From contig OZ361260.1 of assembly GCA_977018835.1 (NCBI GenBank), positions 558,001-622,000 of the forward strand: 64,000 nucleotides of DNA, read 5' to 3'. Under the pieces are notes generated by a model. That model did no database searches. It was given only the letters and a program-made list of their open reading frames with translations, and was not told the DNA's origin. Every line of letters begins with the position of its first letter. Position 1 is the first letter of the stretch. Shown here piece after piece: positions 23,576 to 50,986 of this stretch. The DNA comes from Minutocellus sp. GHC0000111 (Eukaryota). Made by a program: the position numbers and the translations under genes.

Positions 23576-26500
23576 CCTTTCGAGTTCAGAGGAATTGAAA
23601 GTGACGTGATGATGACGTATTAGAAACACGACCACACCAGACCAAAAATCCAAGCTCACTTTTTCTAACTCCGAGGAATAAATGACGGCCAAGATGGAAG
23701 TCGGGGCAAGAACCAAGTTATGGTCACCAACTTCTACATATAGTCGAGAGATATTGTGCACCAGAACCAATAAATGTACATTATGTGATGATTTTTTTCG
23801 ACATTTGCATTCCTCACCCCCGGGAAAAAATGCATTTTTGGAAGCACCAAATCAAAATGTAATGAATAGAAATGGACATGCTATGATAAGTTATAGCAAA
23901 TCAATGACTCCATCGTCTTCATCATTTTCATCTATGTCGTCCTCAATGTCATCATCTTCGCCGGGAGCATCAATTGGCCAGAGTGGTTCACCATCCTCTT
24001 CAGCTTCTTCCTCGGCAATTTTTGCGAGACCAGCCTTTCCCCGTCTGGTCTCCACAAGATTGTTACCGCCACGACTTCTCTTGATGTTGTTATATATCAC
24101 TGGAAGTTTTCCAAATACATTGAGAAAGGCCTCTTTTGATGCGACATTGGCCCATACTTTCATCACAGTCTTGTCAAGAGCATTCGCATCATTCTTCTGA
24201 CCGCGATGCTCCTTTTCGACGGCCGACTGCAAAGACATCCAGATGCCGAGATCAAGAACATTTGTCTCGGGCGACCGAGGAACCTGCTGGATTATCTCAA
24301 TCTTATATTTGTTTTTGAGGTCCTCGGTGTACTTCTCAACTGCTTCATTGGACCCATGACCGCCGGCATTGTCCATCATAAGACACATAACATCAGACTC
24401 CTGAACATTTTGTGGATCCCACTTCACCCAATGATGTGCGTCTCGAATCGCCTTCCCGACCTCATTCATAGTCTCCAACATCCATTTGGAGTCGCAGCTA
24501 CAGTCCTTGGTAACCTTATCGCCCCGTTGATACCGCACCCCGAGCTCAAGGTCGTCGATCTCAACCATCACCTTCTCTCCATTGCTATCAGGAGTGTGTC
24601 GCTTGAGACTCGAGATCTTTTGATTGTAGCCAACAGCGGCATGCTTGCGACTTTTTGCCTGACCGTCGGATTTATAGTCCTCGTGTTGAAGTTCCAATCG
24701 CTCTGTAACAAACTCAGAAAGGCCGTAGATTTCGGCAATGTGGTCGCAAAGATGGCCGGCGGTCATGTCAGCATTCTCGTCGTAAATGTCGCGCCAATCT
24801 TTGTCATTTTTTAGCGCAACGTTGACCTTAGCATCTGGAGAGAAATTCTGATTACGCGTAAGCTTTTCCACCTTCTGCTCCCTGGCGACTCTCTTGATCA
24901 TGATGCGCCCATTGAAATCAACGTCTTTGGTTTCATCCTTCATTGGTCGGCCAACAACTCCAAGACACATAACTTTGACAGGGTGTCTTCTGGATCGAAT
25001 TTTCGGGCTTTCCTCGGAAGCATGGACAGACGCGAGGTTCGGACTGCTTAGTTCTTCGTCAGAAAGTGGCAACATCTTGATCTTTCGTCGCCGAGTAGCA
25101 GTGTAAAACCACTTTTCATCAAGACACGCTACAGGAATGTTGCGATCGGTCGCAATGTCCTCCCACTTTTCGATCCAATCAAGTCGCTTCCTGCAACATT
25201 CGGGGGAGAGCCTCGGCTTCTCGATCGACGACTTCTCCTCACCGCCTTGCTTTTTCCACCAGCGAAAAAGCTGAAGACGATGGAGACTAATTGTCAGCCT
25301 ATCTTCATCTGGAGTAGCTGATTTTGCGCTCATGCAGTCAGCTAGCTCCTTAAAGGTTGCCATCGCACCCTCCATCCGAGCAGCATGCCGATGCAGCTCG
25401 CGGAGATGTCCTGGCTCCTTCTCCTCGATCATGTCCGTGCATGCCTTCCTTCCACGAACCTCCTTTCTGCCGATGGGATTGCTGATGCCATCAGCAAGGC
25501 TTTTTTGTAGAGCTGGTCTCTCCACTTGTAAAGCTGAGAACCACCGGTTGACTTGGCACAACCGTGATCGCACGCAACTTGCCGACACGCGGCAGTTGCA
25601 ATTTGTTGCCGGTCTTCATGCGTGCGAGTTGGGTCGCCGTGTCCCCACCAATCCGCGAGAGCCACGGCGCTGAACCGCATTCTTTCATTCGCCTGCTTTT
25701 CTTTTCTGATTGGTGTTGGTTCGGTGACGGTTGCATTGGGACGAGGAGGACGGAGCATGTCATCGTTGGCCATCCGAACAACAAAGTCGAGGCAGAGAGC
25801 GACCTTTACCTGTTCATCAATGTCACTGGAGGTGGCACAGACAACGGAAGCATCGGCTCCTCCTAAACCTTCATCATTGGGGGAGGCTGCAGCTGCTTCA
25901 GTGGCGGAAGTGTCACCAGTTCCCTTCAGCATGCTGAGGAGACTTGCTGGCATCCAACCCAGTTTCTTGGCCTCGTCGACTGCTAGTGATTTTGCTCTTG
26001 CTTCGCAATGCGCTGACTGTGCCTCCTTTCTGTGAGCTGACAACCTCTCACCTAGCTTAGTAGCTAAGACAGTCGAGCGCCCAGAGAACAGAGCTTCATC
26101 GGGATTTCTTTTCTCGTGCACCTTCTGTCCCTCCGGTCCAGAGAATTTCGGGTGGTTGTCCTCCTTCTTTTTACGCAACCTGTGAGCACAAACACAAAGC
26201 GCCCTGCGTCTTGTCTTCCCTCTCGGCCGACACGTCGACAAGTGCAACTTCAAACTACAATGCTCCTTGAGATGTTGCTGCACATCCTTCCATTTTTCCT
26301 CGTTGTACTGTAGCTCATGCCTTCCTCCACCGACGGACTTGGAACGCAACAAGTCGGCCTCGATGAAAGCAGGGAGGACGTCTTCCCATTTCTGCCGAGA
26401 ACCAACACAAATGTCATCTTTGCCGCAGGAATCGGGGGTCACTCTCCACCACAGATCCTTACCAGCCCTTCGAATGACATCTGCTGCAAGGAGAAAGGCC

Positions 26501-27026
26501 ATGGGGATGGGAGGAGGGGCCGTCCTCTTCTTCGCCGACGACGGTGACGGTTTGGCGGGGGCGAACTTGACCGTGGCCGCTTCTTCGACGTGTTTGCGCT
26601 CGGCGATGGTGTTTTCGGCTCAGCTGCCGCCTTTGCCGCCTTCCTGGATGCCTTGGTGTTGCCTCTCTTGCTCCCTGAGAACGAAGTTCTGCTGCGTTTG
26701 TATTTTTTGGGCGTGGTCTGGTTGGTCGTCGTCATCGTCACAAAATTTGCGGGTTGCGGTGAGAGAGGGTGTGTGCGGGGGACCAAAAAATGTGTGTGTT
26801 CCTGCCAGAATCTACTGGACCTGCGAATTCAGTGGATACTACTGGTCGGTGGCAACCTACTGAACGAGCAGGTCCAGTAGATATCCACGAGTTGAGGAGT
26901 ATTTGCGTTCCTCCCGAAGAGAACATCGACTAACGAAACACGTGGTGGGAAATGAGAAATGGGTGCAAGAATGACCTTTTTAGGGGTTATTGGTATACCC
27001 TCTACAAATCCTCTGAAACCGAAAGG
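23576..27026 (-). mobile_element. Tc1/mariner DNA transposon, DD39D (plant-mariner-like) group, copy 1
   Basis: TA flanks at 23574-75 and 27027-28; imperfect ~22-bp TIRs CCTTTCGAGTTCAGAGGAATTG / CCTTTCGGTTTCAGAGGATTTG; near-identical to 44177-47606. Confidence 0.92.
23891..26735 (-). pseudogene. disrupted DD39D transposase (copy 1)
   Basis: LDEKWFY, KVM.LGVVGRP, MDNAGGH and QVPRSPETNVLDLG motifs, with exactly 39 residues between the 2nd and 3rd Asp. Frameshifts at ~25500 and ~26505. Confidence 0.88.
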
Positions 27027-28135: not shown

Positions 28136-30652
28136 TAATTTTCATCATGTCTTGTACACACAAAAAACAAATCACTTACCCCAATACTGGACACGAGGGT
28201 CGTGAAGGCCGCCAGTAAGGAGGCAAGAAGGATACTTCAAACCTTCTCTGACGTTGTTGATTGGGGAGTATTCCATCATGTATTCGTGGTACTTGACCTC
28301 GTTGGGGTTTCCCCACTCCTTCCATTCCACAACGGTCAACGGAATACTTGCGTCAATCATCGTGCAAACAACATCGACGAAGGGGACGCCCATGAGGGCA
28401 AATTTAAAGAGCTCCGGAGCTTCATTGATTGCAGCTCCGATCAACAAGCCGCCGGCAGACCTACCCTCGCAGCTGAGCTGATCAGGCGTGGTAATCTTGC
28501 GGTCAGAAATGAGATTCTTGGCCACTGTGGGCACGGCGATGGGATAGCATATCGGTGAAGGAAATTCGTAGATTGAATAATGCCAAAACAATAATAATCC
28601 TTTCATCAAGTTTTGTACACATGCAATTCACTTACCATCGACAAAATCATACCATGTATTCTTCTTGCAGAGGTATTTTGCCCCGTTAGGTTCCTCATAC
28701 CACTGTCGCCCCATCTCGCCGCCTCCACGGACGTGCGCAATCACGTAGACCATGCCTCTATCCAGGAGGGTTCTGCGAGTAGTGCGGAAGCTGGCTTCCA
28801 TGCAAGCACCGTACGATCCATAACCATAGAGGTGTGTTGGGACAGTCTCGCCAGCCTTGACCTTCTCCATGACATCTGCTCGAGCAACAATGCTTACTGG
28901 GATTTCCGTGGAACCATCGCGAGACAATACAGTGGTGCGCTCCGAAACATAGTCAGACTTCTCGTATCCGGGAACCTCCTGTTCCTTCAATGTCGTGCGA
29001 ACGGAAAGGTCGGAAGGTGAAGCGAGTGGGATGCTGATGGAGCTCAGTGGTGTGACGAGGGAATCGTAGGCAATAACAACCTCATCGGCAGTGCACTCCA
29101 GGTTGGATCCCAGGCCAACGTCGTACGCATCCTCGGTGAATTGAAGCTGGACAAAATCCTTGACATCAGAACTTTCAGCGCCTTCGTAGGCAATGACCCA
29201 AACCTGGGGCAAGCCACCCTCACGTCCAGTGGCAACGGAATGTGACTCAAAGGAAGTCACGCCGGAGATTGATCGGTCGTATCCGCCGTCAAACATGACG
29301 TTGCCGTTCTGATCCTTCATGTCGGTCCACAGCTCCTCAGAGTTGGCAACGGCCTTGCTCATCATCAGTCGCATGTTGGGAGTACCACCGACGTTGGTGG
29401 TAATGTACCAGTACCCAGCTCGGTGACGGACCGAATACAGAACCTTATCGCGCCTCTTGGCAACGCACTGCAGGGTGGCATTTTTATCGGCGAGGTCCAA
29501 GTAATGCACCTCACTGGTTTCCTTGGATCGCGAGGACACAAAGATGTATTTGCTGTCGAATGACTTGCTTAGACCGACCCAATACAGCTCATCGTCGTCC
29601 TGGTACAGCAATTCGTCGGGCTCACCGCTACCAATGATTCGACGGTAGAGCTGGAAAGGACGCTTCTATTCGTCGAATTTGAGGTAAAACAAGGTCTCAT
29701 CATCTGATCCCCATTGCAGAGCACCGTAGCACTCGAGCTTGTCGTCGTGATCAACAATCTCACCGCTTGCAATGTCCTTGACATAAAGAGAGCAAACTTC
29801 ATCCCCCGAGAAGTCAACTGTGTAGCCGACGACGTTGCCACTGGGACTGGTGCGGACCTGGCCTGTGGAACAGTACGGCTTGCCCTCGGCCAACGCATTG
29901 ATGTCGAGGTAGGCCCATTCATCCTCCAAGATGGGCGATTCCTTCGCACCATCCCACGCCTTGGCCTGCTCAATCCACGCATGTCTATCGCCCTTGGGAA
30001 GAGGAGCACGGCACAGCGACTTGTAACTCTTTCCTTCAAAGGTTCGACTGTAGTAAAGGAATTCACCCTTGGGAGTTGGTACCGTGTGATCGGTCTCCTT
30101 GATGCCCGAAAGCATCTCCTTGTACAGATCGTCCCGCAGTCCGTCCAGATGGGACGTCAGAGCCTCCGTGTAGGCATTCTCGGCCCGCAGATGGTCCAGC
30201 ACTTCCTCCACCTCGCGCTTTTCGTCGCGGAGCCACCCGTACGGATCTGGGACCTGGATCGGTGGGTCCAACAGCGCTTCGGCGGAGGATTCGGACTGGC
30301 GGATGAGCGGCTTGCCCTTGGAATCGGCATATCCGACGTCGCCCTCGCGGAGCAGGCCGGCGAGGACGTATCGGTCCTCCTCGCGGCGGGCCACTGGCGG
30401 TTGGGGCGTGCTGTTATCGGCCGAGGTCGTCATTGCCGATGAAACTACTGATGCGAAGCGATGACGTGGGTACTTGTTGCCGAGGATGCCGCTGCGAGTA
30501 TGGAATGCCGATGTGCTTCGGGTCAGGGTGAGAGCAAGGGCGAGTGATGCGAAGCGATGACGTTGGTACTTGTTGCTGAGAATGCTGCGAGTATGAAATG
30601 CTGACGTGCTTCGGGTCAGAGTGAGAGCAAGAGCAAAGCTTCGACTCTTCAT
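27899..30652 (-). CDS. oligopeptidase B (protease II, S9A); in-frame TAG at 29666-29668, possible pseudogene
   Basis: DPYGWLRD, LYGYGSYG, HVRGGGEMGRQWY, catalytic GRSAGG, GLHDPRVQYWEPAK and AGH motifs. Introns at 28635-28525 and 28179-28075. Confidence 0.9.
30449..30634 (-). repeat. in-frame tandem duplication (~96-nt period) within the oligopeptidase presequence
   Basis: ALALTLTRSTSAFHTRS(G)IL(S/G)NKY(Q/P)RHRFAS occurs twice. Confidence 0.9.
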
Positions 30653-31112: not shown

Positions 31113-32738
31113 ATGTCCGGTAACGGCACTCTGCCAGCGACGTCGTCGTATTCGAGCTTTGGAGGGGATTCCACCTCGTCGGTCCAGGCCATCACCACCG
31201 AGGGTTGGCTCGAATTGTTCCTCACGCCGTCTCAAAAGCGCACCTTCTCCAAGTGGCAGGAGGATGTGGCCGACAAGTCCCTGACGCACCGGGCCACCCG
31301 CACGTCGTTCGACGCCCTGGCCACGTACATTCCCGACTCCGTCGCGCCCAACGTCGTTACCGCCGCGGGATTCATGGCCCTGTCGCAATCGTGGTACCTC
31401 ATCAACAAGTACGGAGAGGAGTACCCCACGGCCTGCACGTGGTTTGCCGTGGCCAACATTCTGCTCTTCTTTGTGTTCAACAGCGTCGATCTCAAGCATG
31501 CCGATCGGATCCGACAGCGCACGGCCTTGGGTGATCTGTTCAAGTATTGCTGCGATTGCTGTTCGACGGTGTTCTTGGCCGTCCTGACGACGTACTGCAT
31601 GGGCGGAGTCGATCCTGTTACCCAATGGTATGCGGTCCAAATTGCCCAGCTGGTCCTGTTTACCAAGCATTTGAGCGCGTTCCATCGCAATGCCGGTCTG
31701 CGGTACAATGTGTTGACTGGACCTGGCGAAGTGATCCTCAGTGCCGTCATCCTCCTGGCCGTCCGTGCCACGTTGGGTTTGGATTGGCTCTGCAGTTTCT
31801 ACGAGAGCACCATCCACAAGGTCGTCGAGGCCCTCACGAGCAAGTACAATGTATCGATCCGTGACGATCACATGGACATTATCACCGATTCCGAGACCAT
31901 GGGCTTCGAGATGCTCCGATTGGGATATTACTGCATGTTCTACACGGCCGTCATCAAGGTGATGTTGCTGCAGAAGCCGCACGGGTGGACGAGGTTTGGC
32001 CTGAGTACCAGTCTGCTGATGCGATTTTTGCCGGCCATCCTTCTCCATTTGGGCATCGGTGCGTTCGACATCAAGACGGCCGATGTCATTTGCGATGGTT
32101 TGTTCATGGCCGTGTTGACGTCGGACGTTACGCTGGCCAAGATGGCGGGACGTGAGATCCACCCCTGGATTGTCCTCATGTCCATGTTTGCCGTGATGAG
32201 TCATCCCTTCATTCTGGTCCTGGTGATTATTTACTACATTGCCATCTTTGGTGATCTGTGCAGCTACCTCAACATGCCTCTGATGACGGTATGCCGCAAC
32301 GTCTATTGCGATGGTGTGTATGATCTCTGCCACATTGGTCACAAGACCTTGTTCAAGAATGCGCTTGCCTTCGGCAATCGTTTGTTTGTGGGCGTCGTTG
32401 GAGATGAGGATGCCTCGCAGTACAAGCGACCGCCAATTATGACCGGCGCCGAGAGATGTGCCGAGGTTGAGGCCTGCAAGTCAGTGACAAAGGTCATTCC
32501 TAATGCGCCTTGTTTTGGTTTGACCAAGGAGTTCTTGGACGAGCACCAAATTCACGTCGTTGCGTTCGGGGAGGAGTACCTCGACCGGTGGCCTGATCCA
32601 AAGGATGACATTTACTATGGATATGCTCGTCAGATTGGCATTGCTCGGCCGCTCCCCAGGACCAAAGGTTTGAGCACAAGTGACTTGATTCGAAGGATAC
32701 AAGCAGCAAGGCCTGCCGACGATAGGAATGATTCTTAG
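31113..32738 (+). CDS. CDP-alcohol phosphatidyltransferase-like domain fused to a C-terminal CTP:phospho-base cytidylyltransferase domain
   Basis: N-terminal IPDSVAPNVVT plus TM helices (CEPT/EPT-like). C-terminal VYCDGVYDLCHIGH (HxGH), YKRPPIM...ER and PRTKGLSTSDLIRRI. Confidence 0.88.
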   Translation: MSGNGTLPATSSYSSFGGDSTSSVQAITTEGWLELFLTPSQKRTFSKWQEDVADKSLTHRATRTSFDALATYIPDSVAPNVVTAAGFMALSQSWYLINKYGEEYPTACTWFAVANILLFFVFNSVDLKHADRIRQRTALGDLFKYCCDCCSTVFLAVLTTYCMGGVDPVTQWYAVQIAQLVLFTKHLSAFHRNAGLRYNVLTGPGEVILSAVILLAVRATLGLDWLCSFYESTIHKVVEALTSKYNVSIRDDHMDIITDSETMGFEMLRLGYYCMFYTAVIKVMLLQKPHGWTRFGLSTSLLMRFLPAILLHLGIGAFDIKTADVICDGLFMAVLTSDVTLAKMAGREIHPWIVLMSMFAVMSHPFILVLVIIYYIAIFGDLCSYLNMPLMTVCRNVYCDGVYDLCHIGHKTLFKNALAFGNRLFVGVVGDEDASQYKRPPIMTGAERCAEVEACKSVTKVIPNAPCFGLTKEFLDEHQIHVVAFGEEYLDRWPDPKDDIYYGYARQIGIARPLPRTKGLSTSDLIRRIQAARPADDRNDS

Positions 32739-32960: not shown

Positions 32961-33160
32961 NNNNNNNNNNNNNNNNNNNNNNNNNNNNNNNNNNNNNNNN
33001 NNNNNNNNNNNNNNNNNNNNNNNNNNNNNNNNNNNNNNNNNNNNNNNNNNNNNNNNNNNNNNNNNNNNNNNNNNNNNNNNNNNNNNNNNNNNNNNNNNNN
33101 NNNNNNNNNNNNNNNNNNNNNNNNNNNNNNNNNNNNNNNNNNNNNNNNNNNNNNNNNNNN
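32961..33160. other. assembly gap (200 N)
   Basis: Run of N. Confidence 1.
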
Positions 33161-34522
33161 GGCATGTGCTTTTGCCCTGTTCTCGTCAATGATTTCATCA
33201 GCTGCTTCAACAGCCGCTGCTCTGCATTTCTTTTCCACCTGTCGGGCATTCTTTTCGGTCGGATGGACGATGTCGGCCTTCGTGCAGAAATTCATGAAGC
33301 GACTTGCGTGCATGGCCTCATCTTCCGCTGCCTCCATCAGCTCCAAGTTCATTCCAGCCTGACTTCTAGAATGCTTTCTGCCGGGGCACACAACTTCTGA
33401 CCTCTGGCCGATCCAAGTGCAAAAAGAAAAAGGTTGGTTGCATCTATCGCATCGCCATTCAAATGTGACGCCGAATCCACGCCGAACTGGCTCGGCCGAG
33501 AGACACAGATTGCCGCACGATCGGTGGAGATTCTGCACGAAATCATGCAGCTGCTTCATCTCAACCACAACTCTTTTGCCGTTGAGCTGCACGCCGGTGA
33601 TGTTGGGACGATCGGTAGCGTTGGCGGTGGGAGTAGATGACCGACCGCCCGAAGAATTCTTGTCGGAATAATGTTTCAGTGTCGCGTTGAGATGGGGCCC
33701 ATGCTTTTCATCGTCCTGGAAGTAATTTTCAGGTGTGGTCGGCAGTGATCGCTTGCCATTGCGTTGAGAGCGTGGGCTGGCGTTATCGGCTATTCTGGAG
33801 AAGCGGTAGAAGGGCTTTGCAACGTCAAGGCCTGATATTTTCTCTGGACGTCGTCGTTGGATGTTGACCTCGTGTCGTGTTGGGACGTGTTGAAGAGATG
33901 ATCGAACAAGAGAGATCTCTAAGCTCGGCGACACGCCACCGCGCATCAAGACACGGACAAGCTCATCAATAGTGTAGTAAGTACATCTGACGTCGTCTGG
34001 GAATGAGAGCAAGAGTGAGAGGATTGCCTCCTTGGCGTTAGCACGTGATGTTTCCATGGTTGTTTTTTTGTTTTGCATCGGTTCTGGCGCAAGATGCGCT
34101 TTTCGATGAGAACCTTACAAAAAGAACCCCAAATGAGGGAGACGTGCAAAAATACCCCAAACAAATATCCCCTTACCTCCCAACAGCAAAACTTCAAGAT
34201 GTCTTCCCACCAGCACCACCAATGCTGGTTATGCGTCGGCCGAGACTAATTTCGGTCGATCCGACGATGATGTGTGCGTCGACTGTTGCATTTCTGAGGG
34301 AGAGTTGATTCATCGAAGTTCCTCTGAACCAAGTGTTCCTGGAGGGATTTCCGACTTAATGCTGAAAGGAACGTCGATGACTCTTCGCCACTGTGGAGAG
34401 CGGCGGCCTTCGATGAGGAGCCCATTGTCACGTTGGAGTGCTAACTTTGGCGATGGTGCGAAGAAAAAACGGCACAAAACACGCTTTTTGGGGGCTTCCT
34501 AAAAGTTATGGACAGCGCCCTC
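33161..34522 (-). mobile_element. 5' part of a DNA transposon (Kolobok-/Mutator-like transposase N-terminus), truncated by the gap
   Basis: ORF with C..C-type pattern HRSCGNL...RGFGVTFEWRCDRC followed by MNLELM...FMNFC, resembling the N-terminal half of PF20700-like transposases. Candidate terminus TTAA|GAGGGCGCTGTCCATAACTTTT at 34526-34501. Family call is from memory of motifs. Confidence 0.55.
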
Positions 34523-34630
34523 TTAAGGATCAAGCAAGGCAGTGGGGCAAGAAATCTGAGAAATACCAGGGCGTTCAGCAAGCCTACAGCCTACCGCTCA
34601 AATCATTGCCACGTTGCGATCTTGATACTG

Positions 34631-37300
34631 ATGGGCAGTACACACAGCTCCGAGATGATGGCGAACAACGGAAACGACGCGAGTGCCAGCGGCAACGGAG
34701 GCGGCGACGAGGAGGCCGTCATGGCGGCGGTGGTGGGCCAACCGGCCGCGGAGGAGGATCAGCAGCACCAGGATCAGCAACTGACAATTTCGGCCGTTGA
34801 TGATGGCAACCAAAACGAAACAGCCAACAACGATGATGAAGAGATGGTGGATGCCGAACCGGCAGAGGAGACGGAGGAAGAGAACGGCCCATCCTCCTCC
34901 TCGTCCTCGAGGTACTCCCTCCGCAAGCGTTCGCGCCAGCCCCTCCTGTCCATCCAGGATGGCAGCAACGCAGCCACGTTGACCACCACTGGCGGCCGCA
35001 GCAGCCGCAAGAAGAAGCAGCAGCAGCAGTCCTACGATCCTAACGCCGCCGGCTACGTCAACGCCGCCAACCTGACCGATCGGCAGTTCGAGAAGCTCCT
35101 CCAAGAGTAAGAAGAAAAGGGGGAACGGCAGCGTTTGCAGAAGAAGCAGCGGCTGGAACGGGGATATGCCGACGACGATTATCCCTACGAGCCACCGGCC
35201 GAGGGATGTCCGGCCTTCGATACGCTGCCCAAGGAGGCCATCCAGCTCGTATTCGAGCTGCTGCCGAGTGTCCGGTCGGTGTTCAATCTGGCGTACCAGT
35301 CCAAGTACATGCTGTCCTTTGTGGAGAAGAGGGTGAGTGGTGGAAATAAATAATGAATGAATGGATGTTGTTAGAGTAGTGTGTGCAGATTCGTTGATAA
35401 TATTTCCCATCTCACCACACTTTCCTTGCCGTCGCCATGCAATCATTCTAATTTGTTCCACACAACAGATGGATATTGTCATCCGTGCCACAGTACTCGA
35501 GGACGCCCACCAGCACGGTTCTACTCCAACGAGATCTATCCTCTCCGGTATTGTGCAGCTCGTTCGCAAGCGGTCCATCCATGTGCCATCACCTCTTCGT
35601 CTTCTCAAACAGGTCAATGCCAAGCGCTGCGAACGTGGTGCCAACTGCTTTGGCTTTGATCTCAAGAAGGACCTTGCATCCAACAAGAATATGAGCTCCG
35701 GTTATCACAAACCTTTCGGCTTTGCCATCTGCAGCGCTTGCGCCAAGGATTGCTGTACTAAATTGCCCCGACAATGGAGTTGGAATCATTGGACACGCCA
35801 GGAGCGGATTGACGGAAAGATCGTCTTCTACGGATGGCGGGGTGCATTTGATCCAGACAAGGGGTCGGACCTTTGTATCGGGCCCAATGGAGAGCGCATT
35901 GGCCCAATCATCAACGGAAGGCATCTGCAGCAGATCGCGAATACGCATCCGTATGACATCGAGAAGCAGAAGAATTCATTTGCTGCCTTCGTTAACCAAG
36001 AATATGGTGAGGAGGGTAGCGAGATGATGGAGTCGTTCGAAAAGGCATGTGCCGATCTAGTCCAGATCCATGAGGAGGTCGAGAAAGAGCGAGAGGAAAA
36101 GAAAAAGGCCTTCTGGGAAAAGTGGACGGAGGATAACAAGGCAAAGGATGACGCCGTTGTGGCTAGCAAGAAGGCGAAGCTCCAGCCTATTATTGCTGCT
36201 CTGGAAGAAGCTGTTGCCGATGCCCCTCTCAATGGCGCTTGACTTTGAGTGGAAGGACAGCCGTTGGGACCCAATCAAATTTCGATATCATTTTGTCAAG
36301 GATAGTCTCGGTAAGCTCCTTTCAGCTCCATCCAGTGCTTCTCAAAAGAAGATCAAGTCCGCCTGTGCCAATATCTGTCGCAAGTTGGAAATTCTCTCGA
36401 CCATGTCCCAAGCGGAGGGGGATGACGACGATTTCTTCTCCTTCGATTTTCTCGCCGCCGCACACCAAGAATGCTCGCTACCTCTCAGGAAGAAGGCCCT
36501 TCAGAAGATATCAGAGTATTGCGAGGCAGAGCTCACCGGGGGCATGAAGGGTATCATCGGTGGTGAGCATGGGTGGTACGCCGATTCAAAAGACTCGAAC
36601 AATACGAACGATCGATGGTTTGATCTTCTCGAGGGCGGTCCCGAGAAGTATCTCGATGCGGGTAAGTTGTTCAGGTGTTTTCACCGCCGCTCGGCTCCTT
36701 ATTATGATTGATATTTTGATAACGTGTTCTAATGCCATTCTTCTTTTTTGTCCTTGAAATTGCTCTGTACGTTTACACAGTCCTTCACATCCTCTCAGCA
36801 CGAAGGTACTTGTGCCAACTACAACCAGCAGCAATTCAGTCAATCATCGACATCTAGCAAAGGCTGTATGGAAGAAGTTAGAGAGCGAAATGGAGGAGGA
36901 GGGATTCACCCAATCTTCCTTCTACGAGGCCCTATCCCAGTGTAAGACCGAGTTCCAGACCATGAAGACAAATGCCAAGGATTATCTCGACGAGGATGAT
37001 GTCAAGAACTTTCGCAACTCGAATGCATGGGACTCGCACAAAAATCGCGACGCAGTCGACCAGGTTTGGGATCCTCAGGATGCCGTTATCAACGTCCGAT
37101 CCTGGCAGAGTGTGGTTATCCCTGCCAACGTTCAGAATATCAAGCCGTACCGCCTGCTTTTGGATCGTGACTTTGAGAACCTCCTTCGCATTCATCGATT
37201 TTACAGGGACAACCTTTATCGGTGGAGACACAGCACCTTTGGCGCAGTCTCACACCTTCACCAAACCATTGTCACCACCAACAATAACAGCAGCAGCTGA
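34631..37300 (+). pseudogene. unknown-family protein (F-box-like N-terminus, Cys cluster), disrupted paralog of 40869-43532
   Basis: Shares YSLRKR, YQSKY.LSFVE.R, HVPSPLRLL, CERG..C, PFG.A.C..C, GP.GE.IGP and KPY.LLL.R.F with the paralog. In-frame TAA at 35108; frameshifts at ~36232 and ~36810; introns 35333-35468 and 36662-36780. Confidence 0.7.
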
Positions 37301-37572: not shown

Positions 37573-39189
37573 CTAATACTCGTAATTCTCGTAGTTCTGC
37601 TGACAGTGGACCGGGTGGATGAGCTCCCCGCTGACGCTGCACCGGTACATGCCCTCGTCCTCGGTGACCGTCCTCCAATCCCACCCCTCGCTGGCAAACT
37701 CCAGGGCGTTGCGCTGGGCGTTCTCGTGCAGCTCGATGCGGTTGGTCCACAACCGATCGCGGATGCGGTGGGAGTATTCCGACCGCATCGGTATCGGCGT
37801 CACGCGGACCTGCTCCCGGAACGTGATGCGCTTCTTCTCCTTGCGGGTGGTCGGAACGCTGTGGGTGGAGGATGGGTCCAGCTGACCATCGGCGGTATTT
37901 TCCTTCTCTTCTTCGGCTGTACTTGCTGCTGGTGCTGCTGCAGCTGTACCTTCTTGTTGTTGTGCATCGTTGCTACCTCCATCTTCTTGCTTGTCGCTGC
38001 TGCCCGTCGCACCATCGTCACCGCTTGTTGGATTCGGCTCCATATCCATTTCCAGCTTTTGTTCCTCTTGCTTGTTTCCATCTTCAGCCAAAGTTGCGGT
38101 ATTGGTATTGACCCCCTCTTCACCCTCCTGTGCATTGCTACCATCCTCGTTATTAATATCATCGTTGTTATTGTCATTGTTGTTCCCCAACCCAAAGAAT
38201 CGCTTCCATGCATTCCTCTCCAATCCATCGGCCACCCGATCCTCCCGGAATTTCAGGGGTTCGTCATGACTGGCCACCCCCCCCAAAAGGCTGGTCCGGC
38301 CCGTCTGACTGCTCCCCCCGACCGCACCCGGTGGCAGGTTGCCCCTGCGCATCATCATGTCCGACGGGGCGTGCGGCATCCCCCCCACCCCCCCGGCCGC
38401 CATGGCCTTGGAATTGTCAATCCCCAGCTTGTGCAGGAGGTCGGACCGGAGGCGGCGGGAATCGGCCAGGTTGGGCAGGGACGGATGACGCCGGTGCGAC
38501 ATGCCCTTGCCGGTGCTCGTGGAGGTGGTGGTCTTGGCCGTGGCGATGCTTTTCGAGTCTCCACCACCGGCCTTGCCACCCTTCCCGTCCTTGCCCAGAC
38601 TCGGCCGGCGGGTCTTCTTGGGCTTGAAGATCATGGCCTCACCCTCCATGGTGCGGCGGGTGTGCTCGTCGGGGAGGGGTATGTGCTTGGCGCTGGAATC
38701 CAGCTCGGGCGGCGGCGGGGGGACGTTGGGATTCTTCGGATTGGTGCCGTCGGGGGACGGTCCGAAGGAATCCTGCCGCCGGAGGGCGTTGGGCGGCGGG
38801 CCGGATCGGCCCTCGGGCGACGAGGGCTGCGACGTGGAAGGCGAGGCGGTCGTCGGTCTCGGCGGAAGGCCACCCCCAGGACTCGCCGGACTTGCCGATG
38901 CCGCCGCCGGTCCCAGATCCAGACCGCTCACCCCCCCGGCGATGGCGGCCATTTCCGCCAATGCGTCGGCGGCGGCACTCGCCGGATGCGCCCGGGGGCT
39001 GCTCTGCGGGGTGGTCGCGGGAGATGTCGAGGCCGAGGCCGAGGCCGAGGAAGCGACGGCCCCGAATCCCGGCGAAGGGGGCTGGGCGGCATGAGGGATG
39101 TGCCGCGGAGATGCCGGCGGGGTGCTGGCGCTTGCCTGTGCGGCCGACGTCGTCGCCGGTGACCGCGGCCGAGGAGGAAGGCCGGGCAT
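37573..39189 (-). CDS. low-complexity protein with conserved-looking C-terminal domain (RVxF-like motif)
   Basis: Pro/Ser/Ala-rich N-terminus; C-terminal [22 protein letters not shown]...[14 protein letters not shown]...GELIHPVH. Confidence 0.75.
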
Positions 39190-39485
39190 AGTATCAACTA
39201 TGTTATGGCGTGTTATTGGATGCGCGTTGCTTTGTACGCGACCGGCCGTGGTATGGCGTACCTAGGTATGCATGCATCAATGTCCGCCGGCGGAGGCCGG
39301 CCGGATCATCCTCATGGTTCCGAGAAAAGGCCTTACAGAAAAATCTGACGTCATTCAAGCATCATAAAGAAATGCGACAAACCGCCGCAGTCGCCTTCAT
39401 TTTTTCATCTGCTTACCACCTTCCAGTCCAGAGCCAGGTGCTCAGGAGCCACCGACTGCACACACAGCCCAAGCGTACAGGCATC

Positions 39486-40868: not shown

Positions 40869-43532
40869 CTAATGCACTCCGTTGGCCGTTCCGCATCGGT
40901 GATAGTATTTGTGAACCTCCAACAGCTTATCGAACTTCCTCTCCAAGAGGAGCTGATAAGGCTTGACATCTTCAAGACCTTCCGGAACACTTCCGCCACC
41001 CCCCCAATGATAATGTCGCCCCCTCAAGACGCGATTCTCGGGCATCCACACCTGGCCAATGGCTCTCTGCCGGGTGAACCCGCCCTGCCATCCCGGGGCA
41101 CCAGCCAAATACTCAATAACGGGCGTGGTTTGAAGATAATCGCGCGCAGCACGGGACAGCTTGGTATATTCCGTCTTGCAGAGCTTGAGGACATCGACGA
41201 AGTCACCGAACGAGGAAGTGACCACGTTGTACTGCTCCTCGCTCTTGATCTTCTCGAAGATCGTCTCAGTCAGGTTGCGGTGGTCGATGGGATCTCCGGC
41301 CTCGAGAGCTTCGCCATCCACCACAAGCGTTGCCGATATAATACCGCTGAGCTCATTCCTACTCGATAGGAGATTGAGAAGGGCCGCCTTGTACGATCTC
41401 CTGCTCAGTAGGTCATAGAATTGCGGGGTGAACTCGTCCTGGGCATGGTAAAACCAGCGGCTCGTGGGATCCTCGTGCTTGTTCAGCAGGGTCGCGAGGT
41501 TGGTGAGATCCTTCTGTTGGATGTGGTTCAGAAGTTTCTGCTTCAGACGAAGTTTCAGCTGACGATCCGCTGCAGAGCAACCCTGCTGCTCGGCAGCTTG
41601 AGCCGTGAGGAAGCTGAAGGACGCAAACTCCGGATGAGATGCAAACGTATTGAGATTCTCACGGATACTGGCCACCGCATTATCCACACGCTTCTGAGCG
41701 TAGGAGGGACCTCGAATGAAGGTAACAAGCTTCTGATGAACCTGGGGGAGGGAGAAACGAAGGGGCAGATTCGTATCGTCATCACACCAGTGATAATCCA
41801 TAGCCAGCGCCTTGATATCGTCGGGCAGTTCCTCGACGGCTTCCTCCAAGATGGGTAGGATTTGGACCAGAGTCTCCTTCTTGCGGGCGATGATGGCCTT
41901 GCGGTTGTCTTCCTTGCCATCGTCCTGTTTGGCGTAGAACACCTCGAGCGCCTCCACGGCCTCGTCGTAGTACTGAACGAACTGGGTGGCGGCCTTCTCA
42001 TACTCATCGTACCGTTCCTCGCCCTCCTTGCCGTATACTTCCTCGCACAGCTCGCCAAAGGCCTCCTTCTGAGCATCGACGCCATCGTTTCGATACGAGT
42101 GGCATAGCTGCATGATGTGACGGGCGTTGAGGAATGGTCCGATTTTCTCTCCGTCGGGTCCCTCCATCAGGTCGGCAACTGCCAAAGGATGGAAGAGCTT
42201 GGAACTTCCAATCTTGAGGATCTTCTCTTCGGTGCGCCCCCAACTGTAAATGTAAGCGAATGAAATAAAAATGGCAAGGTGAGATGAACAATAGTACGTA
42301 GTAAATACCAGTAAAGTGAATATATAAACGGTAGTGCACGTGTTCTTCGAGCACGGCTCCCTAAGCTAAGCCCACTCTTTTGCTGACTTTGTAATATATC
42401 CTTTAAAGGATAACAAATAACACGCAACACACACACAATTTAGCTACAATGCATACAATAGAGACAATATGCAAAATACTCACTGGTTCCACCACCGAGG
42501 AATCGTGCGGCAGGCATCGTTGCTGCACTTGTGGCACAGAGCCATCCCAAACGGACGGGCCGCCCCATCGACGCCAAGACGCGTACTGGCCGTCTCCTTC
42601 TCGGTGTTGTAGTCCCAGCACTGCTCGCCCCGCTCGCAGCTCTGGGCACAGAGCAGCCGTAGAAGCCGGAGGGGACTGGGTACGTGCATGGCCCTGCAAC
42701 GGACGTCCTCGGCGAGCTGCGTCATGATCTTCCGGCAGCCGTCCACCTTCTTGTTGCCGCTCCACCCGATGGCACCGGAGGATTGTAGCTGCTGCTGCTG
42801 ATCAGCAGCGTTGGCGTCCGTTCCATCACCATCGCCGTTGTTACTACCGGTGTTACTGTTACCACCCCTCTTCTTCTTTGGTGCAATCTTGGCCATGGCA
42901 TTCTCGTGGACGGCAGCCCTCACGATCAGATCATGCCGCCGCTCCACGAAGGAAAGCAGATACTTGGACTGGTACCCGAGGTTCAAAATGTCGCGGCAGC
43001 GTGGGAGCATCTCGAAAATGATCGTAATGACCGGACCGGGAAGCTGATCGAGAGCGACGGTGAGGTTGCCGTTGCCGATGGTCCCGTCGGGGTTGGGACG
43101 GTACGGGTACGGCCCCTCGAGCTTGCGGCGCTTGTCTTCTCGCTGCCGCTGTCCCTGCTCCTCGTGATGGCGGAGGAGGGCCTCAAAGTCCTTGTCGGAA
43201 TAGAGGGCACCGTGGTTGACCATCGCGAGGGCCGAGTTGGTGCTGTTGGCGTTGTCATCATCGTCAGTCTCGTTGGTAGTGAAGGTGGAGGCGGCTCTCT
43301 TTCGAAGGGAGTAGCTGGACGAGATGGTAGCGGAACTCTTGGCGGGTGACTTTGACGTTTTGTTCTTTGCCGATGCCTTTTTCGTGGCCGTCTTGCTGGA
43401 GGTGTTGTTGGTCGCCACGGGTTGAAGGGCGGATGACGACGACGCCGAGGCCGAGGCCAAGGCCGAAGTGGCTACGCCACGGGTCCGGGTGGATCGCCTG
43501 GTGGTGGTGCCGCTGGTATTGCTGCTGCTCAT
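40869..43532 (-). CDS. unknown-family protein (F-box-like N-terminus, Cys cluster), intact paralog
   Basis: Two exons joined by intron 42483-42244, giving WWNHWGRTEE, which matches the paralog's WSWNHWTRQE; LDQLPGPVITIIFEML F-box-like segment. Confidence 0.78.
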
Positions 43533-44176
43533 GGTGGAGAATGGCATGAAGTGCAGTGCTGAAAGATCCGCCGTATCCATCCACGTTGGATTTTCCCCAG
43601 TTTTTCTGATGTCATCATGAGGTCATTGTTCCCGCCTACCCAGCCCGCCAACTCTGCTCGGCTGAAGCCGCCGACTCACATGCATGCTGCCGCCTGATGC
43701 CCACCCATGAATGATTAAGTATATTATATCCTTATAGGTGGGGACTGACTGCATGGCACGCGTGTTGCAGCATGCGCATCCGGTGGCGTGCGACAGCGCC
43801 GTCAGCGAGACGAAGACCGTCAGTCTTGGCTTGAAAAACACATGCAAATCTCCATTTCGTAAGCCATCCCTGTCCTCAGTGCCTGACCTCAGGTAGCCCT
43901 ACATGTGCTGATCCTCACCTCACCCTCACACAACCTTATCCTACAGTATTTTAATTTGCGCTCTTGTTTATGTTATCGATATTCGCTCTTGCTGATGCAA
44001 GTGCGGCTGCCGCTACATGCATTCAATTGAATTGGATCTGGTTCTAACCTTTTTCATTACGATCGACACATGTAGATACGTGTAGATTTAAGTTGTACTT
44101 AGCGGGGGGACACCACCACAAAAATGTCGAAAAGCACGATGAAAAAAATACCAACACTCTCTATGGCGTACTCGTG

Positions 44177-47100
44177 CCTTTCGAGTTCAGAGGATTTGAA
44201 AGTGACGTGATGATGACGTATTAGAAACACGACCACACCAGACCAAAAATCCAAGCTCACTTTTTCTAACTCCGAGGAATAAATGACGGCCAAGATGGAA
44301 GTCGGGGCAAGAACCAAGTTATGGTCACCAACTTCTACATATAGTCGAGAGATATTGTGCACCAGAACCAATAAATGTACATTATGTGATGATTTTTTTC
44401 GACATTTGCATTCCTCACCCCGGGAAAAAATGATGCATTTTTGGAAGAGCACCAAATCAAAATGTAATGAATAGAAATGGACATGCTATGATAAGTTATA
44501 GCAAATCAATGACTCCATCGTCTTCATCTATGTCGTCCTCAATGTCATCATCTTCGCCGGGAGCATCAATTGGCCAGAGTGGTTCACCATCCTCTTCAGC
44601 TTCTTCCTCGGCAATTTTTGCGAGACCAGCCTTTCCCCGTCTGGTCTCCACAAGATTGTTACCGCCACGACTTCTCTTGATGTTGTTATGTATCACTGGA
44701 AGTTTTCCAAATACATTGAGAAAGGCCTCTTTTGATGCGACATTGGCCCATACTTTCATCACAGTCTTGTCAAGAGCATTCGCATCATTCTTCTGACCGC
44801 GATGCTCCTTTTCGACGGCCGACTGCAAAGACATCCAGATGCCGAGATCAAGAACATTTGTCTCGGGCGACCGAGGAACCTGCTGGATTATCTCAATCTT
44901 CTATTTGCTTTTGAGGTCCTCGGTGTACTTCTCAACTGCTTCATTGGACCCATGACCGCCGGCATTGTCCATCATAAGATGCATGACATCAGACTCCTGA
45001 ATGTTTTGTGGATCCCACTTCACCCAATGATGTGCGTCTCGAATCGCCTTCCCGACCTCATTCATAGTCTCCAACATCCATTTGGAGTCGCAGCTACAGT
45101 CCTTGGTAACCTTATCACCCCGTTGACACCACACCCCGAGCTCAAGGTCGTCGATCTCAACCTTCACCTTCTCTCCATTGCTATCAGGAGTGTGTCGCTT
45201 GAGACTCGAGATCTTTTGATTGTAGCCAACAGCGGCATGCTTGCGACTTTTTGCCTGACCGTCGGATTTATAGTCCTCGTGTTGAAGTTCCAATCGCTCT
45301 GTAACAAACTCAGAAAGGCCGTAGATTTCGGCAATGTGGTCGCAAAGATGGCCGGCGGTCATGTCAGTGTTCTCGTCGTAAATGTCGCGCCAATCTTTGT
45401 CATTTTTTAGCGCATCGTTGACCTTAGCATCTGGAGAGAAATTCTGATTACGCGTAAGCTTTTCCACCTTCTGCTCCCTGGCGACTCTCTTGATCATGAT
45501 GCGCCCATTGAAATCAACGTCTTTGGTTTCATCCTTCATTGGTCGGCCAACAACTCCAAGACACATAACTTTGACAGGGTGTCTTCTGGATCGAATTTTC
45601 GGGCTTGCCTCGGAAGCATGGATGGACGCGAGGTTCGGACTGCTTAGTTCTTCGTCAGAAAGTGGCAACATCTTGATCTTTCGTCGCCGAGTAGCAGTGT
45701 AAAACCACTTTTCATCAAGACACGCTACAGGAATGTTGGGATCGGTCGTAATGTCCTCCCACTTTTCGATCCAATCAAGTCACTTCCTGCAATGTTCGGG
45801 GGTGAGCCTCGGCTTCTCGATCGACGACTTCTCCTTACCGCCTTGCTTTTTCCACCAGCGAAAAAGCTGAAGACGATGGAGACTAATTGTCAGCCCATCT
45901 TCATCTGGAGTAGCTGATTTTGCGCTCATGCAGTCAGCTAGCTCCTTGAAGGTTGCCATCGCACCCTTCATCCGAGCAGCATGCTGACACAGCTCGCGGA
46001 GACATCCTGGCTCCTTCTCCTCGATCATGTCCGTGTGTGCCTTCCTTCCACGAACCTCCTTTCTGCCGATGGGATTGCTGATGCCATCAGTAAGGCTTTT
46101 GTAGAGCTGGTCTCTCCACTTGTAAAGCTGAGAACACCGGTTGACTTGGCATGGCCGTGATCGTGCGCAACTTGCCGACACGCGGCAGTTGCAATTTGTT
46201 GCCGGTCTTCATGCGTGCGAGTTGGGTCGCCGCATCCCCACCAATCCGCGAGAGCCACGGCGCTGAACCGCATTCTTTCATTCGCCTGCTTTTCTTTTCT
46301 GATTGGTGTTGGTTCGGTGACGGTTGCATTGGGACGAGGAGGACGGAGCATGTCATCGTTGGCCATCCGAACAACAAAGTCGAGGCCGAGAGCGACCTTT
46401 ACCTGTTCATCAATGTCACTGGAGGTGGCACAGACAACGGAAGTGTCGGCGGCTCCTCCTAAACCTTCATCATTGGGGGAGGCTGCAGCTGCTTCAGTGG
46501 CGGAAGCATCACCAGTTCCCTTCAGCATGCTGAGGAGACTTGCTGGCATCCAACCCAGTTTCTTGGCCTCGTCGACTAGTGATTTTACTCTTGCTTCGCA
46601 ATGCGCTGACTGTGCCTCCTTTCTGTGAGCTGACAACCTCTCACCTAGCTTAGTAGCTAAGACAGTCGAGCGCCCAGAGAACAGAACTTCATCGGGATTT
46701 CTTTTCTCGTGCACCTTCTGTCCCTCCGGTCCAGAGAATTTCGGGTGGTTGTCCTCCTTCTTTTTGCGCAACCTGTGAGCACAAACATGAAGCGCCCTGC
46801 GTCTTGTCTTCCCTCTCGGCCGATGCGTCGACAAGTGCAACTTCAAACTACAATGCTCCTTGAGATGTTGCTGCACATCCTTACATTTTTCCTCGTTGTA
46901 CTGTAGCTCATACTTTCCTCCACCGACGGACTTGGAACGCAACAAGTCGGCCTCGATGAAAGCAGGGAGGACGTCTTCCCATTTCTGCCGAGAACCAACA
47001 CAAATGTCATCTTTGCCGCAGGAATCGGGGGTTACTCTCCACCACAGATCCTTACCAGCCCTTCGAATGACATCTGCTGCAAGGAGAAAGGCCATGGGGA

Positions 47101-47606
47101 TAGATAGGAGGAGGGGCCGTCCTCTTCTTCGCCGACGACGGTGACGGTTTGGCGGCCGCTTCTTCGACGTGTTTGCGCTCGGCGATGGTGTTTTCGGCTC
47201 AGCTGCCGCCTTTGCCGCCTTCCTGGATGCCTTGGTGTTGCCTCTCTTGCTCCCTGAGAACGAAGTTCTGCTGCGTTTGTATTTTTTGGGCGTGGTCTGG
47301 TTGGTCGTCGTCATCGTCACAAAATTTGCGCGGGTTGCGGTGAGAGGGGGTGTGCGGGGGACCAAAAAATATATGTGTTCCTGCCAGAATCTACTGGACC
47401 TGCGAATTCAGTGGATACTAATGGTCGGTGGCAACCTACTGAATGAGCAGGTCCAGTAGATATCCACGAGTTGAGGAGTATTTGCGTTCCTCCCGAAGAG
47501 AACATCGACTAACAAAACACGTGGTGGGAAATGAGAAATGGGTGCAAGAATGACCTTTTTTAGGGGTTATTGGTATACCCTCTACAAATCCTCTGAAACC
47601 GAAAGG
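44177..47606 (-). mobile_element. Tc1/mariner DNA transposon, DD39D group, copy 2
   Basis: Same TIRs and orientation as copy 1. Right flank TA (47607-08), left flank TG (44175-76). Similarity to copy 1 stops exactly at the TIR ends. Confidence 0.92.
44496..47314 (-). pseudogene. disrupted DD39D transposase (copy 2)
   Basis: Same motifs as copy 1. Stops at ~44901 (TAG) and ~45780 (CGA>TGA); frameshift at ~46135. Confidence 0.88.
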
Positions 47607-50783: not shown

Positions 50784-50986
50784 AGTATTGTTACTTTTTA
50801 GGCCTCGTTCCCGCGTGTCTCAATTCTTCGGTTCTCCAAGGCGCAAAAAAATGTTTCATTATGTGACTTTCTGTTGATATATTGGCCTGTGAATGACATT
50901 TCTGAACAGAGCAGTCGCGAAAAGCTCCGGCACTTTTATTCATAGTATTGTTACTTTTTAGGCCTCGTTCCCGCGTGTCTCAATTC
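50784..50986. repeat. exact 43-bp direct repeat, 160-bp period
   Basis: AGTATTGTTACTTTTTAGGCCTCGTTCCCGCGTGTCTCAATTC at 50784-50826 and 50944-50986. Confidence 0.92.

Follow-up and report, generated by a model that had tools for sequence, protein, structure and literature searches.

The window, a 64,000-nt stretch of the diatom Minutocellus sp. GHC0000111 (contig OZ361260.1, positions 558,001 to 622,000), has a GC content of about 50% and carries two types of DNA transposon, here called elements A and B, next to host genes. The features used below are as follows.

23576..27026, minus strand: element A, copy 1, a DNA transposon that is flanked by TA at each end and has short TIRs
31113..32738, plus strand: host cytidylyltransferase gene (PF01467 on homologs), the unmutated control
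32961..33160: assembly gap of 200 N that truncates element B; the remainder of the element is lost there
33161..34522, minus strand: element B, a Kolobok-like DNA transposon (PF20700) with many copies, of which the 5′ part is visible
33161..34057, minus strand: first 299 codons of the element B transposase ORF (P0001 = 33164-34057; PF20700, Pfam E=2.6e-6)
33161..33615: TpA-poor segment; TA kept at 33367 (CTAG) and 33445 (CTAT)
33165, 33211, 33309, 33466, 33504, 33536, 33546: the seven TA lost from that segment, from column and contig evidence
33616..34057: outer ORF segment of element B; 14 TA kept, 12 of them outside RTAY, and 8 lost, every one at RTAY
34058..34522, minus strand: 5′ non-coding part and terminus of element B; the minus strand begins GAGGGCGC
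34523..34526: TTAA adjoining the element B end, a candidate target site seen on one side only, with the other end in the gap
44177..47606, minus strand: element A, copy 2

Element B belongs to a large family. Past ~34530, the summed depth of contigs drops from thousands to 12.7 (run X4) and 166 (run X5), loose ends behind 34527-34530 show other copies running into unlike flanks beyond the TTAA, and a contig piece from X5 terminates at 34526. The protein cluster has 170 members; full-length relatives are ~840 aa long and match the PF20700 'Mutator-like transposase' domain (Pfam) at E=1e-20 to 1e-22 (P0022: 3e-20). Contigs of RNA run X6 also contain element B, although contigs cannot show transcription. 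A metagenome scan gave a single weak locus (L001, 41% over 48 aa), which was unused in the analysis, and a viral scan gave none. Two members, P0002 and P0031, have kept most Tyr and represent related copies or subfamilies; the N-terminal part of P0031 differs and is common to P0010 and P0011, which suggests a mosaic element.

Mutator/MuDR elements have a variable 8-10 bp target duplication and long TIRs. Four other element B flanks (one contig piece and three loose ends) match through the TTAA, which fits a fixed site better than a variable one, as judged at one end only. Kolobok elements, known from the diatom Fragilariopsis, are described as having a TTAA target, a 5′-RR terminus and a DxxH motif that follows the second Asp and precedes the Glu, the C/DxxH motif being common to Kolobok, hAT, P, MuDR and Dada (PMC9587614). 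Element B resembles them in the TTAA by its end, in its 5′-RR terminus (GA on the minus strand) and in DxxH: the family member P0022 has AQDGS, VADGD, DFNH and VEQL motifs that make up a DDE with DxxH, with catalytic roles assigned by inspection and the corresponding region of the window copy hidden by the gap. The second end, the duplication and the accessory gene (KolX) are out of view, and Pfam names the domain 'Mutator-like'; because the second end is missing, we call element B Kolobok-like only.

An earlier note on this DNA had drawn attention to a loss of TpA in 33161-33615, and counting bears this out: the segment has two TpA steps, at 33367 and 33445, against ~25 expected. The observed/expected ratio (o/e) is 0.08 for TpA, 1.45 for CpA, 1.35 for TpG and 0.95 for CpG, and TpA o/e for the whole window is 0.58. 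Of 119 non-overlapping 455-bp blocks of non-transposon DNA, one has a TpA o/e ≤0.1, a host gene with 68% GC, and none combines this with CpA+TpG ≥1.39; the minimum among the 85 blocks at 48-60% GC is 0.24. Note that the interval was picked post hoc and that its left edge is the 200-N gap. The minus-strand ORF likewise has no Tyr past residue 130 and has CTYYT, PFYRF, NYFQ and KHYS nearer the terminus, as had been described. Restoring the seven lost sites, of which 33466 was called from a T/A column at aa198 and 33165 from a contig loose end together with aa298, yields only nine TA (o/e 0.34), indicating that the family founder was already TA-poor there. A second candidate, a ~1-kb stretch with a single TA at 38158-39192, was rejected as a product of the same process; it is low-complexity host coding sequence with 66-74% GC.

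The His and Cys residues of the segment had been proposed to be former Tyr, and comparison with other copies shows that some of them are. P0002, a less-mutated homolog (91% identity over residues 150-298), has Tyr at 12/12 scored sites, and in 27 close family proteins, those listed from clusters with up to 170 members, the same columns read Tyr, His or Cys (aa171, H4 C10 Y1; aa185, C10 H5; aa250, H11 C9 Y1; aa298, H5 C9 Y2). Homologs thus carry Tyr where the earlier note had allowed that they might share the His and Cys of the window copy. Tyr-holding columns contain 114 His/Cys cells and 2 other non-Tyr cells, and Ile columns divide into Met and Thr, as predicted by ATA>ATG/ACA. Altogether, of 238 minority cells, 117 fall in these strict classes; a further 82 could have arisen from TA, and 39 could not. 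Within 33161-33615, however, only 4, perhaps 5, of 14 His/Cys were Tyr (171, 185, 250, 298; H229 possibly), and the remaining 9-10 are ancestral: either the homologs with less mutation that were compared have the identical residue, or the close copies do not vary there. Among the peptides named in the earlier note, LHDF, MHASRF and AKAHA come from Tyr, as does NLCLS, which it did not list; RKHSR has Tyr in P0008 alone (74% identical); and LHRSC, IVHPT and KKCR, polarised on just 2-4 homologs, are identical in P0002 and P0031.

Tyr to His and Tyr to Cys are each one transition at TA, and His to Cys or the reverse needs more than one step. All four combinations of states occur at 25/28 site pairs, 0/28 pairs are linked at p<0.05, and 13/13 element B haplotypes are distinct. 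We conclude that each copy underwent its own changes from TA to CA or TG. The lack of linkage implies either mutation after insertion or heavy gene conversion; gene conversion among copies could be another source of the random assortment. Loss among 14 copies is overdispersed (p=0.002), mainly due to P0028, in which 21/21 scored sites have changed, including sites spared in other copies. The same pattern is seen in DNA. From contigs of four runs in three studies, 40 of 90 variant rows were taken in, with depth shares used roughly only, and 13 rows from one low-depth divergent contig (34259-34350) were dropped. From a separate contig table, two sets of rows were left out, 33991-34007 as belonging to a divergent contig and 34485 as a homopolymer. 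Of the 27 family-depth rows among the 40, 25 are interchanges between TA, TG and CA, one probably is, and one is not (33571, AA>AG).

The earlier note had held that the loss is not family-specific. Element A supports this, since it is a different transposon, without PF20700, that shows the same spectrum. Its two copies have 70 differences over 3421 positions, of which 44 are TA-type: 16 single differences of TA vs TG/CA, and 28 positions that form 14 CA/TG doublets. Thirty of ~110 TA-derived sites differ, compared with ~4 among 503 AA/TT steps; transversions at TA occur at 2 sites only; and CG differs at 7/193 sites, the other 186 being shared. These allele counts are non-independent, and double losses in the same direction are invisible in them. 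In the core of copy 1 (24600-26200), RTAY is absent. The element A protein has no transposase match in Pfam or PDB, and none to PF20700. Tc1/mariner-like elements have a TA target-site duplication, TIRs and DDD motifs; element A has TA flanks and short TIRs, and its motifs may be similar to theirs. Close to the right end, both copies also have an inverted repeat of 24 bp whose spacer is 25 bp long (47389-47461 and 26810-26882).

Loss depends strongly on the flanking bases. In the window copy of element B, 16/20 RTAY sites were lost, as against 2/24 other TA (p=1.5e-6). Two of the eight RTAY lost in 33616-34057 are fixed across all 16 close copies scored, and in 34058-34522 three RTAY were lost (34076, 34095, 34289) and 10 TA kept. 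In element A, 11/14 doublets are at RTAY, and YTAR is shared at 14/15 sites. At RTAY, Tyr codons changed to Cys and His at a ratio of 44:32, compared with 29 to Cys and 6 to His for Tyr codons after a pyrimidine, a bias that drops to 29:11 when aa484 is included. At asymmetric sites, therefore, the changed strand is the one reading TAY. Context is not the whole story, since the GTAC at 33536 is apparently kept in most copies and the one at 33309, with an identical 6-mer, is lost in 20/21; site rates vary beyond the 4-mer.

We considered whether loss also depends on distance from the element end, as the earlier note had proposed in describing a gradient from the terminus of this copy and stronger loss inside elements. 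In the window copy of element B, 7/9 sites were lost in 33161-33615 vs 11/35 nearer the end (p=0.02). RTAY sites alone show little difference (5/5 lost inside vs 11/15 outside; p=0.53), with a residue at non-RTAY sites (2/4 vs 0/20; p=0.02), and every Tyr retained near the element B N-terminus is non-RTAY. The step at 33615 in this copy is thus mostly a matter of flanking-base context. When 11 non-RTAY sites are scored over the whole family, changes on the TAY strand number 9/68 at less than 750 bp from the 5′ end and 42/93 at 750-1311 bp, and increase with distance (Spearman 0.72, p=0.012). This increase is not monotonic: farther in, four pyrimidine-preceded Tyr at aa332-408 became Cys in just 9/64 cells, as judged from protein with codons unseen. 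RTAY alleles of element A, which are non-independent, are kept and lost at 37:7 within 800 bp of the ends and at 1:21 in the interior. What stands of the proposed gradient is therefore a residual sparing of ends, at non-RTAY sites in the element B family and strongly in element A, and lower rates within ~0.5-0.8 kb of element ends are partly demonstrated by these counts. This sparing is likely to be real, yet secondary and patchy, given that an RTAY was lost 233 bp from the element B end, that element A copy 2 has TG in place of its left target-site TA (44175-44176), so that the very edge can change, and that P0028 has changed at 21/21 sites.

Host DNA is spared. Homologs of the cytidylyltransferase gene at 31113-32738, whose best named matches (68-70%), to Cyclotella cryptica, Eucampia antarctica and Thalassiosira pseudonana, place the host among the diatoms, retain Tyr in 321/326 cells, although this control is under selection and not neutral. 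In a second host protein cluster Tyr is kept at 24/24, and 0/5 differences in the X5 flank of element B are TA-type. TpA loss is thus limited to foreign or mobile DNA, with one possible exception, P0034, a host protein of 176 aa from the P0013 cluster that is joined to an element B copy. It departs from 12 host sequences at 7 positions, 6 of which are TA-compatible (three V>A and one each of T>A, M>V and Y>C) as read from protein with DNA unseen, and may reflect mutational spill-over into an adjoining host gene. Related host ORFs at 34660-36700, 40869-42365 and 42480-43622 adjoin the 5′ end of element B and element A copy 2, a stretch like HVPSPLRLL is common to the first and third of these, and an identical 43-bp direct repeat lies 160 bp apart in AT-rich intergenic DNA (50784-50826 and 50944-50986).

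A process that erases TpA was otherwise found reported in one unrelated alga only, Bigelowiella natans. As described in a 2026 preprint, integrated NCLDV and virophage DNA undergoes TpA hypermutation in that species, with a measured A>G-at-TpA spectrum and a de novo rate raised about 1000-fold in viral inserts; its authors also note that transposon domains are enriched among coding sequences poor in TpA, and put forward a deaminase like ADAT2 (bioRxiv 10.64898/2026.01.13.699255). The two cases are alike in the change of TpA to TpG/CpA, in its occurrence on both strands and in its restriction to foreign or mobile DNA. Both may also be uneven, between lineages there and between copies here, in the latter case mainly through P0028. 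They differ in host (a diatom, hence a stramenopile, vs a rhizarian), in targets (multi-copy DNA transposons vs integrated NCLDV/virophage DNA) and in evidence (standing variation vs measured de novo mutation), and the RTAY/TAY preference and spared ends seen here are not described in the parts of the preprint consulted. The words diatom and stramenopile are absent from the preprint text (bioRxiv 10.64898/2026.01.13.699255), and a literature search, with subscription journals outside its coverage, found no report of TpA hypermutation in diatoms. An engineered enzyme shares the preference for TA with the putative natural diatom activity: off-target DNA edits by TadA8e/ABE8e are reported as A>G and T>C, favouring TA (PMC13225742).

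TA is ancestral, both strands are hit and RTAY and the TAY strand are preferred; sites are unlinked, CpG is largely untouched and the host gene is unaffected. On balance, and with slightly better than even confidence, we favour a host adenine-deaminating activity that would act on silenced mobile DNA after insertion, changing TpA to TpG/CpA copy by copy, on both strands and in both transposon types. Adenine in TA would be converted to inosine and fixed as A>G at replication, with the presumed effect of inactivating transposons. The A>G changes at TA, biased to TAY, are in keeping with a deaminase of TadA/ADAT type, and the acting enzyme would be TadA/ADAT-like; a literature search for diatom deaminase candidates gave no match mentioning diatoms. 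That both strands are hit in DNA-only elements would argue against RNA editing followed by reverse transcription. The activity may be targeted by chromatin region, and silenced chromatin is a plausible guide because DNMT5 is reported to silence young transposons in Phaeodactylum (PMC9998398).

Two other readings start from the sequence itself. Ordinary composition, that is, a transposase natively poor in TA and rich in His and Cys with a chance or context-dependent step at 33615, explains part of the low TA count and most of the window-copy gradient: only nine TA are reached by back-counting (o/e 0.34), 9-10 of 14 His/Cys are ancestral, and RTAY sites show no gradient in this copy. It does not explain the loss itself, since homologs have Tyr and copies differ mainly at TA; the three-state Tyr/His/Cys columns rule it out as a full explanation, and we consider it very improbable. 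The CA/TG doublets might instead stem from methyl-CpG decay (CG>TG/CA) or forward RIP (CA>TA), as DNMT5 methylation is reported on diatom transposons (PMC9998398), 7 CG sites differ in element A and Arg occurs at aa129 in 2 copies. However, aa171, 250 and 298 have Tyr (TA) as their third state instead of Arg (CG), Tyr is also the outgroup residue, CpG is at a normal level (o/e 0.95), and TpA is depleted rather than enriched. With TA ancestral, both are excluded for most sites, and this is the least probable reading of all.

The other rivals accept the change from TA to TG/CA and differ in its cause. RIP of ascomycetes is a dinucleotide-specific C>T change that creates TpA and strikes repeat copies one by one. 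The diatom process is like it in being a transition at one dinucleotide in repeats, copy by copy, and unlike it in destroying TpA and raising GC (TpA o/e 0.08, TA ancestral). Repeat pairing could be the trigger here too, in place of chromatin state: both affected elements are multi-copy, and recognition by pairing should likewise lower the rates towards repeat borders, by analogy with RIP, so that the spared ends do not separate the two forms of targeting. Against pairing, the 6/7 TA-compatible departures of P0034 lie in host sequence beside element B (DNA unseen), a 93-bp tandem duplication at 30491/30584 keeps GTAT in both units (a weak test, as it is short), and the hypermutated virus region of B. 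natans is described as single-copy (bioRxiv 10.64898/2026.01.13.699255); we regard this trigger as unlikely. About as unlikely is an error-prone polymerase working in repair patches of silenced repeats, which would yield A>G without deamination. Pol eta-like polymerases have a WA motif, and there are a few AA>AG changes, at 33571 and in the N>S columns aa176 and aa270 of element B, and about 3-4 in element A. In contrast, the excess of TA-derived over AA/TT sites in element A (30/~110 vs ~4/503), the rarity of TA transversions and the near-saturation of RTAY speak for TA as the target. Less probable still is an adenine mark at TpA in silenced DNA (e.g. methylated adenine) that would either mutate passively or be turned by an enzyme into a G-pairing base. 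By analogy with 5mC decay, it would predict the same targeting and strand symmetry, but the saturated copy P0028, with its overdispersion, and the line-to-line bursts described in the preprint on B. natans better fit an episodic enzyme.

Host adenine deamination of silenced transposons remains our preferred explanation. A wider version, which we put forward tentatively and at rather less than even confidence, is a diatom defence that would deaminate adenine in double-stranded DNA at RTAY/TAY in all transposon types, guided by silent chromatin, fading near element ends and spilling into host genes, and thus a natural editor shared with, or parallel to, the chlorarachniophyte one. TpA hypermutation, measured in one rhizarian alga, would then extend to diatoms and to ordinary DNA transposons. 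Fungal RIP would be joined by another broad defence that mutates repeats, one that shifts base composition the opposite way. Site-by-site rates from a family with many copies offer both a motif (RTAY, TAY strand) and a scale of distance by which the enzyme and its targeting rule can be singled out, and CRISPR tools exist for diatoms. The same loss of TpA is a warning that consensus sequences and age estimates of diatom transposases are distorted by it.
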